Source: an uncultured Chloroflexia bacterium
GTDB lineage: Bacteria; Chloroflexota; Limnocylindria; Limnocylindrales; CSP1-4
DNA length: 64,000 nt
Assembly: GCA_963721015.1 (NCBI GenBank)
Contig: CAVRHM010000002.1
Span: 973,324-1,037,323 of the forward strand
Reading direction: 5' to 3'
Both the position numbers and the translations under genes were made by a program. The notes below the pieces were generated by a model. It had not been told where the DNA came from. It did no database searches and was given only the letters and a program-made list of their open reading frames with translations. Shown here piece after piece: positions 7,486 through 12,666 of this stretch (position 1 is the first letter of the stretch; each line of letters begins with the position of its first letter).

Positions 7486-8076
7486 ATGGACCTGACCATC
7501 GAACCCCTCACGCCCGACCGGCTGACCGACCTCGCGGCGCTGTTCGGCCAGGGCGGCGACCCCAAGCGTTGCTGGTGTTCGTTCTACCGCGTCCGGAACA
7601 AGGACATCGTCGACTGGTCGAAGCAGGACAACCGGGCGGTCCTGGAGCGCGCCCTCGACGCTGCCGCCACGGAGCACCGGGCTCCCGGCCTCGTCGCCTA
7701 TGCCGGCGGCGACGTCGTCGGCTGGACGAGCGTCGGGCCGCGCGAGGACTACCCACGGATCGTCCATTCGACCGTGCTCGCGCCGATCGACGACACGCCT
7801 GCCTGGTCGATCGTCTGCTTCGTCGTCGGCCGTCGCTCACGGGGCCAGGGCGTGGCCAAGGCCCTCCTGGATGCCGCCGTCGACTACGCCCGCGATCACG
7901 GGGCGACGACCCTTGAGGCCTACCCGGTGGATCTGGCGGACGGTGAGCGCATCGCCTCGGCGAGCGTCTATCGGGGCACGGTGGCGATGTTCGAGCGGGC
8001 CGGATTCGAGGTCGCCGAGCGGCGCCGCGCACCGGGTGCCAAGACGGAACGCCCGATCATGCGTCGCGTCCTCTGA
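7486..8076 (+). CDS. GNAT family N-acetyltransferase
   Basis: 196 aa. Motifs: KRCWCSFYRV, VVGRRSRGQGVAKALLDAAVDYARDHGATTLEAYP. Confidence 0.8.
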   Translation: MDLTIEPLTPDRLTDLAALFGQGGDPKRCWCSFYRVRNKDIVDWSKQDNRAVLERALDAAATEHRAPGLVAYAGGDVVGWTSVGPREDYPRIVHSTVLAPIDDTPAWSIVCFVVGRRSRGQGVAKALLDAAVDYARDHGATTLEAYPVDLADGERIASASVYRGTVAMFERAGFEVAERRRAPGAKTERPIMRRVL

Positions 8077-8124
8077 CGCCACCTACGTCATCCGTCGCAT
8101 GCCGGACATCGTCGTCCGTCCAGG

Positions 8125-8154
8125 TTGACATGGCCTTCGCCCTGGGCCTAGACT
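8125..8154 (+). promoter_or_regulatory. putative sigma-70-type promoter (TTGACA-18nt-TAGACT) upstream of ABC transporter leader
   Basis: TTGACA at 8125-8130 and TAGACT at 8149-8154. Lies in a locally lower-GC intergenic region. Confidence 0.3.
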
Positions 8155-8337
8155 CGCCGACGGCCGGCATGTCGCCCGCCCTCGTCTAGCTCATCTGGAG
8201 GCGTTCTCCGAATGACGATGCACACCCTGCTCCGACGCACTACGGCGCCCATCGGCGACGTGGATCGCGGGAGATCTGTGCCCATCTCGAGCTAGCCGCA
8301 GGCGGCAGGACCGCCTTCCGGACAGGACACGAGCCGT

Positions 8338-8364
8338 GGGCCAGATCGGGCCCCCGGCTTTTTT
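8338..8364 (+). terminator. hairpin + T-tract (GGGCC-AGATCG-GGCCC-CCGGC-TTTTTT): intrinsic terminator/attenuator in 5' leader
   Basis: 5-bp GC stem with 6-nt loop followed by T6. Sits ~180 nt before the ABC ATPase start and ~185 nt after the putative promoter. Confidence 0.4.
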
Positions 8365-8546
8365 GATGCCCTGCTCCGGCAGACCACCAGCATCACGAGC
8401 CGCGAGGCCCACCGACGAAGCGTCGACACGACGAGCGTCGGACGAGGCCCGCGGCTCGTTCCATGTCCCGGGCCATCCACCCCACCACCCCCGTCACCAC
8501 TCGACTACCGAAGCGACTCGACAAGCGACTCGACTGGAGCACCACC

Positions 8547-9431
8547 GTGACCACCCTCATCGATCAACTGAAGACGAGACCCGTGGTCGGCCCTGCTCAG
8601 GGAGCGATCGACCGGTCGATCCCGGCCCTGCTCATCGACGGCGTCAGCAAGTCCTTCGTCGTCGGCCGAGCCAAGAAGCCCGTCGCGGCCATCGTGGACG
8701 TCGACCTGCGCCTGGAGCGTGGCGACATCCACGGGGTCCTCGGGGCCAACGGCTCGGGCAAGTCGACCCTCATCCGGCTCATCAGCGGGCTGCTGACGCT
8801 GGACAAGGGTCGGGTCGAAGTCTTCGGCCATGACCTCGAGCGCGAGGAGATGGCGGTCAAGCGCCTGATCAACCGGGTCAGCGTCGACGCCGCCTTCTTC
8901 AAGAAGCTCAGCCCGATGGAGAACCTCGTGTTCGCCGCCCGGCTGTACGGGCTCGACGGCAATGCCGCCAAGCACGACGCCCTGGCCATCCTGGCCCGGC
9001 TCGGCATCAGCGAGAAGCGGGTCGGCCGACCCGTCGAGCAGATGAGTCGAGGGATGCAGCAGAAGGTCGCCATCGCGCGAGCCCTGCTGACCAGCCCGAC
9101 GCTCCTGTTGCTCGACGAGCCGACGACCGGCCTGGACCCCCGCAGCAAGTTGGACGTCCAGACATTCATCGAGGAGATCAACGAGACCCACGACGCGACG
9201 ATCGTGCTCACGACCCACGACCTGGCAGAGGCCGAGCGCCTGTGCTCCCGGATCACCGTCCTCAACGACGGCCGGATCGTGGCCGAAGGCACCTCGCCGG
9301 AGCTCAAGGCCCAGACCGCGACCCGGCTCGGCCGCGAGGCCAGCCTCGAAGACGTGTTCATGACCTACACCGGCCGCTCCCTCGACGACGACGTCGACGA
9401 GGACGAGTCGGACGACGACGACGAGTCGTAA
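8547..9431 (+). CDS. ABC transporter ATP-binding protein
   Basis: Walker A GANGSGKST, signature LSRGMQQKVAIARAL, Walker B LLLLDEPTTGLD, H-loop TTHD. Preferred start GTG 8547 with GGAG 8 nt upstream; the track ATG at 8463 adds an unlikely N-terminus. Confidence 0.85.
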   Translation: MTTLIDQLKTRPVVGPAQGAIDRSIPALLIDGVSKSFVVGRAKKPVAAIVDVDLRLERGDIHGVLGANGSGKSTLIRLISGLLTLDKGRVEVFGHDLEREEMAVKRLINRVSVDAAFFKKLSPMENLVFAARLYGLDGNAAKHDALAILARLGISEKRVGRPVEQMSRGMQQKVAIARALLTSPTLLLLDEPTTGLDPRSKLDVQTFIEEINETHDATIVLTTHDLAEAERLCSRITVLNDGRIVAEGTSPELKAQTATRLGREASLEDVFMTYTGRSLDDDVDEDESDDDDES

Positions 9432-9460: not shown

Positions 9461-9652
9461 ATGGAAGCGCAAGTCCGGATCGCGTTGGCCCACGCCCGCG
9501 ATTTCCAGGCCCGGGAAGCCCAGCGCGTCGCCGAAGACCGGCGATTCGCCCAGCCCGGCCTGTCCATCCGCCGGACCGTCGGCCGCCGCGTCATCGCGGT
9601 CGGTCAGCGGATCGCCGCGGACCCGACCTACGAGCTGGCTCGGTCCCGTTGA
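9461..9652 (+). CDS. small hypothetical protein (63 aa) between ABC ATPase and permease
   Basis: AGGAGG 7 nt upstream of ATG at 9461. Product MEAQVRIALAHARDFQAREAQRVAEDRRF... Confidence 0.45.
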   Translation: MEAQVRIALAHARDFQAREAQRVAEDRRFAQPGLSIRRTVGRRVIAVGQRIAADPTYELARSR

Positions 9653-9690: not shown

Positions 9691-10494
9691 GTGACCATCG
9701 TCGCCCATGAGCTGAAGGCGTCGTACGCCTTCATCGAGCGCAACTTCTTCCTGACTCGCCGCTACTGGGGCTGGGAGCTCGCCTTCCTGGTCTATTCCGT
9801 CGCGGGCGCGCTCTCCATCTCGCTCATCGGTGCCGACCAGAACAACGAGGCGTTGCTTCTGTCCCTGATGGTCGGGGCGATCTTCTGGAACTACCTGTCG
9901 GTCGTGTTCAGCTGGATCGCCGAGACGATCTCCGTCGAGCGCTGGGAGGGCACGCTGGAGTACACGTTCATGGCCCCGGTCCGACGCTGGTCACAGCTGT
10001 TCGGCTCGGTCGTGTACGCGATGCTCTATGGCCTCGTCCACACGACGGTCATCTTCATCGTGCTGGTCCTGTTCTTCCGCGAGCTCGACCTGTCCTTCGC
10101 GAACCCGAGCACGGCCGTCGTGTTCATGCTCCTCGGCTCGTTCAGCTTCGTCGGGATCGGGATGATCGCCGCGATCATGCCGCTGCTCTACGTCGAGCGT
10201 GGAGCGCAGATGACGTTCGTGCTCCAGTCCTGTCTGCTGCTGGTCAGTGGCGTGTACTACTCGGTGGACATCCTGCCGGAGTGGATGCAGGCCCTGTCCA
10301 AGCTGTCGCCGGCGACGTACGTCCTGGACGGCGTCCGAGCCGGGCTCATCGACGGCGTGCCGGTGACCGAGCTGTGGCACGACATCTGGCCGCTCATCGT
10401 CATGGGCTTCGTCTTCATCCCGTTCGGGCTGTGGGCGTTCGGCCGGGCCGAGCGCTACGCCAAGCGCACCGGCAAGCTCAAGCGGGTCGGCTGA
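9691..10494 (+). CDS. ABC-2 family transporter permease
   Basis: 267 aa with 6 hydrophobic segments; typical ABC-2 permease profile. GTG start. Confidence 0.8.
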   Translation: MTIVAHELKASYAFIERNFFLTRRYWGWELAFLVYSVAGALSISLIGADQNNEALLLSLMVGAIFWNYLSVVFSWIAETISVERWEGTLEYTFMAPVRRWSQLFGSVVYAMLYGLVHTTVIFIVLVLFFRELDLSFANPSTAVVFMLLGSFSFVGIGMIAAIMPLLYVERGAQMTFVLQSCLLLVSGVYYSVDILPEWMQALSKLSPATYVLDGVRAGLIDGVPVTELWHDIWPLIVMGFVFIPFGLWAFGRAERYAKRTGKLKRVG

Positions 10495-10498
10495 TCCG

Positions 10499-11617
10499 AT
10501 GACCGACCTGACGATCCTCGGTTGGGACGCGGCCTGGGCCACGGTGTCGCCCGCCCTCGTGGGCGAGCGTCGCCCGGCCCGGGTCATCGCCGTCCACAAG
10601 GAGACCGCCATCGTCCGCCCGGCCGATGGCCCGGACCGCTCGGCCATCGTGTCCGGTCGCTTCCGTTACGACGCTCTCGCCCCGTCGGACTTTCCGGCCG
10701 TCGGCGACTGGGTGGCGCTCGAACCCGCCCAGCCGACGGCCGGGGCCGACGATCCGGCGGTCATCGCCGCCGTCCTTCCCCGCCGTTCCGCCTTCCGGCG
10801 CAGTGCCGCCGATTCGAGCCGCCGCACGTCCGGTCTGCTCAGCGACGAGCAGGTGCTAGCGGCGAACGTCGACGTCGCGTTCATCGTCGCCGGCCTGGAT
10901 CGCGACTTCAATCTGCGCCGGCTCGAGCGCTACCTGGCGGTCGCCTGGTCGAGCGGCGTGGACCCGGTCATCGTCCTGAACAAGGCCGACATCGCAGAAG
11001 ACCTGGAAGGCCGCCTCGTGGCAGTGGAGGCCATCGCCCCGGGCGTGCCAGTCGCCGTCCTGTCCGCCCTGACCGGTGACCACCTGGCCGACCTCGGGGC
11101 ATGGCTCCGCCCGGGGCAGACCGCGGTCGTGCTCGGCTCATCGGGCGTCGGCAAGTCGACGCTGGTCAACGCGCTGCTCGGGGAACAGCGTCAGGCCACC
11201 GCGGCGGTCCGCGAGGACGACTCCCGCGGCCGGCACACGACCACGCACCGCGAGCTGTTCGTCCTGCCCGGCGGATCGCTGCTCATCGACACGCCCGGCA
11301 TCCGCTCGCTGGAGATGGCCGGGGCAGACGAGGGAGTCGAGGCGGCATTCGACGACATCCTCGCCCTCGCCGCGGCCTGTCGGTTCAGCGACTGCCGGCA
11401 CACGACGGAGCCCGGCTGCGCCGTCAGAAACGCCTTGTCTGACGGCACCCTGAACCCGGATCGGCTGGCCAGCCACCAGAAGCTGGAGCGCGAGCTCGCC
11501 CATGTCGAACGCAAGACCGACCCGCGGGCCCAGGCCGAGGAACGCAAGCGCTGGAAGTCCATCCACAAGTCGGTCGGCAAGCACATGGATCGCAAGTACG
11601 GGACGGAGTGGCGATGA
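10499..11617 (+). CDS. rsgA: ribosome small subunit-dependent GTPase A
   Basis: Circularly permuted GTPase: NKADI...G1 GSSGVGKSTLVNAL. C-terminal zinc finger CRFSDCRHTTEPGC. Confidence 0.85.
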   Translation: MTDLTILGWDAAWATVSPALVGERRPARVIAVHKETAIVRPADGPDRSAIVSGRFRYDALAPSDFPAVGDWVALEPAQPTAGADDPAVIAAVLPRRSAFRRSAADSSRRTSGLLSDEQVLAANVDVAFIVAGLDRDFNLRRLERYLAVAWSSGVDPVIVLNKADIAEDLEGRLVAVEAIAPGVPVAVLSALTGDHLADLGAWLRPGQTAVVLGSSGVGKSTLVNALLGEQRQATAAVREDDSRGRHTTTHRELFVLPGGSLLIDTPGIRSLEMAGADEGVEAAFDDILALAAACRFSDCRHTTEPGCAVRNALSDGTLNPDRLASHQKLERELAHVERKTDPRAQAEERKRWKSIHKSVGKHMDRKYGTEWR

Positions 11618-12666
11618 CGACCATCGATGACGCGATCCAGCTCGGCGTCCAGCCGGACATCCCGGGCCTGCGCCTCCGGCACGTCCGCCTGCCGGAGGAC
11701 TTCGTCGGGATGGCCCGGACCAATCAGGCCACGCGCGACGCGGCCGGCATGGAAGAGGTCGTGACCGCCGAGGCGATGGAGCGTGACTACGGCCACATCC
11801 AGCATTGGGATGCGTACGACGACACGGTCATCGTCGAGCTCGACGGCCGGATCGTCGCCTACGGCCGGGTCGACTGGCGGGACCAGGTCGACGGCGCCCG
11901 GGCGTTCATGGCCATCCTCGTCGTCGAGCCCGCCCTCGCGGCATCGGGCATCCCGGACGCGTTGCTCGGCTGGGCCGAAGCCCGGCTCGTGGCCAACGCC
12001 CGGGCCATCCCGCCGGACGAGCGCCGGCCGAGCACGATGCGGACCTTCTCGTTCGGCGCGGAGGCCGGGTTGACCGACGCGCTCGTGGCCCACGGCTGGA
12101 CCAAGGAGGGTCACGGCTACGAGATGGTCCGCCCGACCCTCGACGACATCCCGGACGTGCCGATGCCGGCCGGGCTGGTCGTGCGCCCGATCGGGCTGGA
12201 CGAGGCCTCCATGCGCCGGGTCTGGGAGGCCGGCGTCGAGGCCTTCGCCGACGAGCGTGGCGAGCAGGAGGCGACCGAGGCGGACTGGGCGGGATTTCGC
12301 GACGACCCGGACCAGGATCCGGCGCTATGGGTCATCGCCTTCGATGGCGATGAGATCGCCGGCGGGGTCCGCGGGATGATCCATCCCGAGGAGAACGCCC
12401 ATCACGGTCGCGAACGCGGACTCCTCGACGGCGTCTTCACCCGGCGACCGTGGCGACGTCGCGGCCTGGCGCGGGCGCTCATGGCCCGGTCGCTGGCCCG
12501 CTTCCGTGACCACGGCATGACGAGCGCGTATCTTGGTGTCGACGGGCTCAACCCGAACCAGGCGATGGACCTCTACACATCGCTGGGCTTCGAGGCCGTC
12601 AGCACGACCTACGATTGGGCCAAGGCCCTGCCGGCCGACGCCGGTCCGCTGGAGGATGGCGCGTGA
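11608..12666 (+). CDS. double-GNAT acetyltransferase (mycothiol synthase MshD-like)
   Basis: 352 aa with two GNAT halves (RGYATEA-like absent; instead RRRGLARALMARSLARFRDHGMTSAYLGVD). Start overlaps rsgA end. Confidence 0.65.
   Translation: MAMTTIDDAIQLGVQPDIPGLRLRHVRLPEDFVGMARTNQATRDAAGMEEVVTAEAMERDYGHIQHWDAYDDTVIVELDGRIVAYGRVDWRDQVDGARAFMAILVVEPALAASGIPDALLGWAEARLVANARAIPPDERRPSTMRTFSFGAEAGLTDALVAHGWTKEGHGYEMVRPTLDDIPDVPMPAGLVVRPIGLDEASMRRVWEAGVEAFADERGEQEATEADWAGFRDDPDQDPALWVIAFDGDEIAGGVRGMIHPEENAHHGRERGLLDGVFTRRPWRRRGLARALMARSLARFRDHGMTSAYLGVDGLNPNQAMDLYTSLGFEAVSTTYDWAKALPADAGPLEDGA

Follow-up and report, generated by a model that had tools for sequence, protein, structure and literature searches.

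A putative leader-peptide attenuator in front of an ABC-2 exporter operon of Candidatus Limnocylindria

In the genome of an uncultured Chloroflexia bacterium (GTDB lineage Limnocylindria, Limnocylindrales, CSP1-4), a 470-nucleotide (nt) gap between a GNAT gene (7486-8076) and the gene of a DrrA-like ABC ATPase holds a leader that probably acts as a ribosome-mediated (leader-peptide) transcription attenuator, gating an ABC-2 exporter operon that encodes the ATPase, a 63-amino-acid (aa) protein, a permease, RsgA and a GNAT. Coordinates are those of the window, that is, the whole stretch of 64,000 nt that was analysed (GenBank assembly GCA_963721015.1, contig CAVRHM010000002.1, positions 973,324 to 1,037,323 of the forward strand). 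Comparison with relatives brings out a promoter, a terminator, an alternative pairing, a conserved reading frame and stop, and linkage to the operon. An earlier note on this DNA had called the arrangement typical of riboswitch or leader-peptide attenuation. The leader-peptide half of that statement has gained from the mutually exclusive structures, the conserved frame and stop, the linkage to the ATPase and the lack of a second promoter, whereas the riboswitch half has lost ground, as no Rfam family matches and a riboswitch would leave the frame and the interchange of stop codons unexplained.

The relatives of the ATPase are all in Chloroflexota metagenome-assembled genomes, mostly labelled Candidatus Limnocylindria or Limnocylindrales. 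Through them 80 loci were retrieved, and in 76 of these the leader is 70-82% identical at the nucleotide level, which bears out the conservation in relatives that the earlier note had proposed to check. A further set came from an exact-pattern search of metagenomes with a 15-nt core, GGGAGATCTGYGCCC (8269-8283), which overlaps one strand of the antiterminator described below; it matched at least 120 contigs, of which 102 among those listed had enough downstream sequence to be scored for linkage. The core is single-copy in the window and in 60 exact-match loci. Reading frame was compared in 159 distinct leaders, and stop position and the top pairs of the antiterminator in 156 distinct leaders or open reading frames (ORFs). 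The elements of the proposed switch are the following.

8125-8154 (+): candidate promoter, with the -35 hexamer TTGACA at 8125-8130, an 18-nt spacer and the -10 hexamer TAGACT at 8149-8154 (motif scan and conservation)
8196-8210 (+): P2, a small hairpin seen in folds, in which the Shine-Dalgarno (SD) sequence GGAGG (8197-8201) pairs with CUCC
8212-8295 (+): leader ORF of 27 codons, MTMHTLLRRTTAPIGDVDRGRSVPISS*, with an SD sequence and a conserved frame and stop
8271-8288 (+): P4, a weak local hairpin of GAGAU (8271-8275) with AUCUC (8284-8288), at -4.1 kcal/mol far weaker than the antiterminator
8275-8289 (+): antiterminator 5' strand, UCUG.GCCCAUCUCG, which is codons 22-26 of the ORF
8330-8345 (+): antiterminator 3' strand, CGAG..GUGGGCCAGA, which is the 5' arm of T1 plus the first bases of its loop
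8330-8364 (+): T1, a predicted intrinsic terminator from the terminator scan, with 5' arm GAGCCGUGGGCC, loop AGAUCG and 3' arm GGCCCCCGGCUU

The promoter candidate, already singled out in the earlier note, is the sole sigma-70-like match between 7000 and 10000, and across 76 loci both hexamers are near-invariant while the spacer is variable, which is the signature of a real promoter. Transcription would accordingly begin at about 8160-8162. A promoter-like match lies 5' of the terminator in 70 of 72 loci, and a sigma-70-like site between the terminator and the ATPase start was found in none of the 72, so that the operon appears to depend on read-through of the terminator.

The stem of T1 spans 8331-8360, where U8359 and U8360 close the stem and at the same time begin a run of six U residues (8359-8364). 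This is the GC hairpin with T6 that had been described before, now with its full stem, and the distance of ~180 nt then given between it and the ATPase agrees with a start of that gene at GTG 8547. The stem is GC-rich and 11-12 bp long, with a mean hairpin energy of -21.7 kcal/mol and 91% of alignment cells paired. Its 5' arm, GAGCCGUGGGCC, is invariant, whereas the 3' arm varies (GGGCCCCCGGC or GGGUCCACGG) yet stays complementary, which suggests that the 5' arm has a second partner. In fact, when transcripts were folded short of the T1 3' arm, the 5' arm paired with G(U/C)GCCCAUCUC (8278-8288) in most loci, and the centroid structure of the window also shows this antiterminator pairing. T1 and the antiterminator are mutually exclusive and both are conserved, so the search for competing folds suggested in the earlier note did yield such a pair.

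The antiterminator helix has 14 bp and a mean energy of -18.5 kcal/mol, comparable to that of the T1 hairpin, against -9.9 kcal/mol for shuffled strands, and 94.9% of its alignment cells are paired, compared with 33-43% when the partners are slid against each other. Its top four pairs are UCUG:CAGA in 112 of the 156 distinct leaders, and 149 of them are fully pairable; wobble variants occur as UCUG:CGGA (22 leaders) and UUUG:CAGA (7), and compensatory versions (UCCG:CGGA, ACCG:CGGU, UGUG:CACA and GGUG:CACC) each occur in one rare lineage, at just those pairs that draw on bases of the terminator loop. Furthermore, the pair 8284:8337 flips from A:U to U:A in loci L035, L024 and L046, and in a distant group, where AUCUC is replaced by UGGUC, the register of the pairing shifts and takes in the two C residues that the main group leaves bulged. 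The antiterminator 5' strand has to pair in P4 or with the T1 5' arm, and this arm in turn with that strand or with its own 3' arm; such a three-way constraint accounts for both the invariance of the block and the conservation of the terminator loop. We also considered a loop-loop kissing contact of AGAUCU (8272-8277) with the terminator loop, but the covariation fits better if these bases form the upper end of the antiterminator helix.

The 27-codon ORF, proposed in the earlier note, is present and conserved behind its GGAGG, and GGAGG or a similar sequence lies 8-13 nt 5' of the ATG in nearly all loci. The P2 hairpin around it does not form in every locus and, its SD side being fixed, lacks covariation. 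Taking the SD-proximal ATG, the distance from ATG to core is divisible by three in 157 of the 159 distinct leaders, with nine length classes represented between 24 and 75 nt, and the stop codon stands exactly 24 nt past the start of the core in 149 of 156 ORFs, beginning in the window 4 nt past the antiterminator 5' strand. This stop is TAG in 122 ORFs, TGA in 29 and TAA in 5. A position that is fixed while the three codons interchange points to a termination signal, as an RNA motif would not tolerate the interchange.

Entropies by codon position (1.21/1.51/1.13) give no excess at third positions in codons 2-8, the residues of which vary radically. The N-terminal peptide sequence drifts freely, two thirds of the product being free of constraint, and position 25 can be I, W, R, A, S, Y or H. 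Codons 20-27 are frozen, third positions included, and codons 21 and 22 are invariant AGA and UCU, both of them very rare in the neighbouring genes, where AGA accounts for 1.6% of the Arg codons and TCT for 1.3% of the Ser codons. The ORF was found to have neither tandem nor enriched codons for any one amino acid; only a partly conserved R8-R9 and the invariant AGA-UCU could be pointed out. All these data suggest that the small ORF is translated and that the act of translation counts more than its product, which is the pattern expected for a regulatory leader peptide. A macrolide stalling motif of the +x+ type (RGR) was discarded, as its first Arg is not conserved.

Linkage points the same way. 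Among the metagenome matches listed, the ATPase lies downstream on the same strand in 98 of 102 loci, at a median of 164 nt past the terminator arm, whereas the upstream GNAT is present, again among the matches listed, in 24 of 72, a far looser association. The element occurs in a single gene context and, as far as the sequences compared go, is so far restricted to Limnocylindria. Its most conserved block is 8268-8371. The covariance scan that the earlier note had recommended returned no Rfam family at gathering thresholds, either in the whole window or in 8 homologous loci, and the best hit of an E-value scan of 8000-8650 was a sub-threshold, terminator-driven Xoo2 match (27 bits, threshold 45). 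A literature search likewise gave no paper mentioning both Limnocylindria and riboswitch, and nothing on gene regulation in this class. Judged from these comparisons, the leader forms a new family within a known kind of regulation; it is absent from Rfam, to which it could be added, and the core GGGAGATCTGYGCCC makes it easy to find.

Besides the switch itself, the leader contains the following structures.

8162-8180 (+): P1, a 5'-proximal stem-loop from per-sequence folds, the loop of which holds the non-conserved ATG of MSPALV*
8236-8269 (+): P3, a hairpin of 10-13 bp from folds, in ORF codons 9-20, with inner stem GCGCC/GGCGC and a variable outer stem
8301-8315 (+): P5, the hairpin GGCGG-CAGGA-CCGCC, 5 nt after the stop codon and inside the antiterminator helix
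8365-8394 (+): H1, GAUGC...GCAUC, conserved, 3' of the terminator
8395-8459 (+): H2, a long hairpin of ~25 bp, the base of which (GAGCCGCG/CGCGGCUC) nearly duplicates the base of T1

For this single sequence the fold energy of the whole leader is unexceptional (z = -1.4); it is the comparison with relatives that supports the leader. Run on a plain MAFFT alignment, RNAalifold returned invariant helices only, with zero covariation; the 5' half of the leader needs a structural alignment, and per-sequence folds were used instead. In these P1 appears as the same hairpin with differing stems (GGCG.GC/GC.CGCC, GGCUCGC/GCGGGC and GGUGCGG/CCGCGCC); it covaries, and distant members extend it by ~20 nt. 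The short ORF MSPALV* (8169-8189), which had been put forward as another short leader ORF, did not survive this comparison: its ATG is AAG or AGA in most relatives and lies in the P1 loop. P3 forms at one and the same position in practically all homologues, although its outer stems differ, with compensatory changes in 7 of 10 core pairs and a covariation score above all 500 shuffles; that only 64% of its cells are paired is due to the MAFFT alignment not being structural. P5, which had been reported at 8301-8321, is indeed there but spans 8301-8315. It is paired in 99.7% of cells around a variable loop, and its rare variants are compensatory: GGCGA/UCGCC (L071), GACGC/GCGUC (L024) and GGCGC/GCGCC (L067). 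The segment from P3 to T1 is ~133 nt long, within 2 nt in most loci, a near-constant length that is consistent with a kinetic device. A long-range helix of 8176-8192 with 8289-8305, taken from the minimum free energy fold of the window, was rejected, as changes on its 5' side are uncompensated in several lineages. The lower GC content of the gap mentioned in the earlier note is marginal, at 0.665-0.67 against 0.70-0.72 upstream, and is no lower than that of the ATPase gene downstream.

The region of H1 and H2 (8365-8459) has a fold z-score of -3.8, and both hairpins recur in homologues with variable tips, covarying middles and conserved stem bases. Perfect pairing would be possible between the H2 3' arm and the 5' arm of T1, and directly 3' of H2 there is GUUCCAUGU instead of a U-tract. 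H2 might act as a weak second terminator, as a processing site or in a long-range switch.

In the mechanism that we propose, the strong conserved promoter would start the leader RNA at about 8161, and this RNA would take one of two folds, either T1, giving a transcript of ~200 nt that ends at 8364, or the antiterminator, which encloses P5. By the standard footprint, a ribosome covers some 15 nt on either side of its P site. One that follows RNA polymerase closely and stands at codon 19 or later, or waits at the stop, would then mask 8275-8289, because this strand is codons 22-26 and the stop lies 4 nt beyond it. With the strand masked T1 would form and transcription would stop at 8364; the rare AGA-UCU pair and the stop codon may prolong the residence of the ribosome on the antiterminator strand. 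Should the lead ribosome be missing, arrive late or stall within codons 1-18, as might happen under starvation, with translation inhibitors or when initiation is poor, 8275-8289 would be free, and the antiterminator would form once 8330-8345 emerges, which it should do readily because the competing P4 is weak, so that the polymerase would read into the operon. More speculatively, P3 and P5 may serve as timing elements, delaying the ribosome or making the polymerase pause. What we infer here is the direction of the switch, the part played by the rare codons and the physiological signal; the gene content (an exporter, RsgA and GNATs, one of them weakly AAC(6')-like) would be compatible with translation stress, although this is speculation.

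Several observations weigh against this reading. Termination at T1 and its regulation are deduced from sequence comparison, and we know of no study of transcription-translation coupling in Chloroflexota. Formal covariation of the antiterminator is weak on the main alignment (one double-change pair, equalled by shuffles), because both strands are almost invariant, and only a few divergent lineages supply the compensatory changes. Third positions are frozen throughout the last nine codons of the ORF, and conservation of the C-terminal GRS(V/A)PISS is indistinguishable from an RNA-level constraint and can be put down to RNA pairing; nor does the ORF point to a specific signal, as it lacks a run of regulatory codons. 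Moreover, the conserved H1 and H2 3' of the terminator are not accounted for. Finally, one copy (L093, 9075-9305) has a LacI-family gene on one side, a convergent operon for a sugar ABC importer on the other and no co-oriented gene downstream, and does not fit a purely cis-acting leader. Its promoter, of the form CTGACA-18-TAGACT, is retained, as are core, P5 and terminator; its defects are a stop changed from TAG to CAG and an imperfect T-tract, TTTCTT. This copy is either a relic or a hint of a function in trans.

A more ambitious form of the attenuator proposal, unlikely but worth stating, is that the leader would be a dedicated sensor of transcription-translation coupling or of rare-tRNA supply. 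The invariant AGA-UCU and the fixed stop would park the ribosome on the antiterminator strand and so tie the exporter, the 30S-maturation GTPase RsgA and the GNAT into a translation-stress regulon, and the terminated 200-nt RNA, presumably abundant, or the peptide might in addition act in trans. The stand-alone L093 copy, and the H1/H2 module that repeats the base of T1, hint at this last part.

Most of the same structures could also belong to a riboswitch-like attenuator sensing a metabolite or a protein, in which P1, P3, P4 and P5 would form a binding domain that steers the same switch and the ORF would be incidental. P1 and P3 covary though a pure leader-peptide model has no need for them, the invariant block CGGGAGAUCUG together with the P5 stem could form a binding core, spacing is near-constant, and the frozen third positions of codons 20-27 indicate that selection there is dominated by the RNA. 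We nevertheless hold this reading doubtful, as the frame kept in 157 of 159 leaders and the fixed but interchangeable stop are inexplicable without translation, and the network of P4, antiterminator and T1 already accounts for nearly all of the invariant bases. Furthermore, the element has one gene context, versus the multiple contexts typical of riboswitches, and Rfam gave nothing at gathering threshold in the window and 8 homologues beyond the sub-threshold Xoo2 match of 27 bits.

The consensus-like promoter and the textbook terminator might instead delimit an independent small gene, producing a 200-nt small RNA, a 27-aa micropeptide or both, merely syntenic with the operon and with incidental read-through. 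The stand-alone copy without a co-oriented downstream gene would suit such a gene, and so would a divergent leader found as the same sequence in L113 (40-1654) and L152. Here a 16-codon ORF, MSGSPVVCGRSAPTGS*, keeps the frame, the position of the stop and the C-terminal GRS(V/A)P, with its ATG in a hairpin loop; ~1.1 kb of low-complexity GC-rich DNA follows and then just the last 85 residues of the permease (56% identity), which from its sequence looks like a decayed or rearranged operon. An independent gene would, however, need no conserved antiterminator competing with its own terminator, and a micropeptide should hardly be unconstrained over two thirds of its length and radically variable at position 25. 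In addition, the operon lacks a promoter of its own in all 72 loci, the linkage is to the ATPase (98 of 102) and not to the upstream gene (24 of 72, both among the matches listed), and the stand-alone copy looks decayed in its stop and T-tract. We thus regard an independent gene as improbable, and the attenuator remains the preferred reading.

Least of all do we credit DNA operators bound by a roadblock transcription factor, to which the short palindromes AGATCT and CTCGAG and the inverted repeat GAGAT-N8-ATCTC in the top-conserved block (8271-8292) might point, because the compensatory changes join 8275-8278 with 8342-8345, ~65 nt apart on one strand, which is a property of RNA, the change of AUCUC to UGGUC in the distant group destroys the DNA repeat and keeps the RNA pairing, and a site 110 nt 3' of the transcription start is atypical for an operator. 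Other identities were also discarded. A signal recognition particle RNA (an GUCCGGAAGG-like string on the minus strand) or a 6S RNA had no covariance-model support and does not fit with the ORF and the terminator, and for a precursor of a lasso peptide or another ribosomally synthesized and post-translationally modified peptide there are no biosynthetic enzymes nearby and the peptide sequence is unconstrained.

The genes of the operon are these.

8547-9431 (+): DrrA-like ABC-2 ATPase, the first structural gene (Pfam and NCBIfam)
9461-9652 (+): 63-aa protein, the second gene of the operon
9691-10494 (+): DrrB-like ABC-2 permease (Pfam and NCBIfam)
10499-11617 (+): RsgA (Pfam and NCBIfam)
11608-12666 (+): GNAT, the last operon gene listed (Pfam and NCBIfam)

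Genes 3' of the ATPase are closely spaced or overlapping. The ATPase most likely starts at GTG 8547, because a GGAG (8535-8538) precedes it 8 nt upstream and the protein matches of relatives begin there; ATG 8463 was dropped as a start, since this ATG and the next 84 nt are poorly conserved. Just 5' of the ATPase ribosome-binding site, at 8511-8534 (+), a 12-nt unit, AAGCGACTCGAC, stands in perfect tandem duplicate, in the least conserved part of the leader, and appears to be specific to this genome. At the other end of the gene (9380-9428, +) the ATPase has a strongly acidic C-terminal tail, DDDVDEDESDDDDES, unusual among DrrA-like ATPases; the tail must be variable, as tblastn matches end at residue 279 in many relatives.

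The 63-aa protein is small, basic and conserved (consensus ...SIRRxVGRRVIAxGxRIAAEPSLELARSR*), with an AGGAGG of its own upstream. It was found by tblastn in 53 of the 80 loci, with indels in frame, and it matches no Pfam or NCBIfam family; it may be an uncharacterised accessory subunit of the ABC-2 system. GNATs flank the operon on both sides: the one at 7486-8076 (+) is weakly like AAC(6') aminoglycoside acetyltransferases and the one at 11608-12666 (+) resembles the MshD/RimI type, both with similarity scores far under the family cut-offs. Together with RsgA they lend the neighbourhood a ribosome/antibiotic flavour.

Candidatus Limnocylindria is an abundant class of soil and freshwater Chloroflexota, represented here by metagenome-assembled genomes only. 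The leader is a clean and deeply conserved candidate for ribosome-dependent attenuation outside Proteobacteria and Firmicutes, in which the mechanism was defined. If the proposal is true, this lineage has functional coupling of transcription and translation, or at the least a termination that senses the ribosome. The leader would also mark the operon of the DrrAB-like exporter and RsgA as conditionally expressed, possibly on translation stress or in response to antibiotics in soil.

Among known systems, the classical attenuators of amino-acid operons are trpL, hisL, leuL and pheL of Escherichia coli. The leader studied here shares with the trpL type an ORF with its SD sequence, alternative 2:3 antiterminator and 3:4 terminator pairings, and a region 2 placed just 5' of the leader stop, where a terminating ribosome masks it. 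It differs in lacking a run of cognate amino-acid codons, in having an exporter and not a biosynthetic pathway downstream, and in that the 1:2 anti-antiterminator, P4, is very weak (about -4 kcal/mol), so that an untranslated leader is predicted to read through and not to super-attenuate. Riboswitches with terminator expression platforms have in common with it the conserved, mutually exclusive terminator and antiterminator in a 5' leader, whereas here no aptamer family matches and the sensing strand lies inside a translated, frame-conserved ORF.

Antibiotic-responsive attenuators with short upstream ORFs (uORFs), such as those of vmlR and lmo0919, were reportedly found by Term-seq (Dar and colleagues, 2016). 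They resemble the present leader in having a promoter-proximal uORF and a conditional terminator 5' of a resistance-type ABC gene, with the ribosome as sensor. As a rule their uORFs are shorter and stand in front of resistance genes of Firmicutes, ABC-F genes among them; drug-specific stalling motifs are defined there while none is identifiable here.

As far as architecture goes, the closest analogue would be the bmrB leader of the bmrBCD operon in Bacillus subtilis, a case of ribosome-mediated transcriptional attenuation in which efficient translation blocks the antiterminator and favours termination, slower translation leads to read-through, ribosome-targeting antibiotics induce and rare codons tune the response (Reilman et al. 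2014; PMC4191407). The two leaders are unrelated in sequence. The bmrB ORF has 53 codons and contains the terminator, whereas that of Limnocylindria has 27 codons and ends 35 nt before it, with P5 in between. Likewise, BmrCD is a type-I heterodimeric exporter and the present operon encodes an ABC-2 (DrrAB-like) half-system, and induction by ribosome-targeting antibiotics was demonstrated for bmrB, the analogy here being one of architecture only. In both systems, nevertheless, one promoter is followed by a small translated ORF and then by an ABC exporter; in both, and for our leader as read from sequence alone, a terminator and an antiterminator compete, one strand of the antiterminator lies in the coding region, and the leader carries rare codons.

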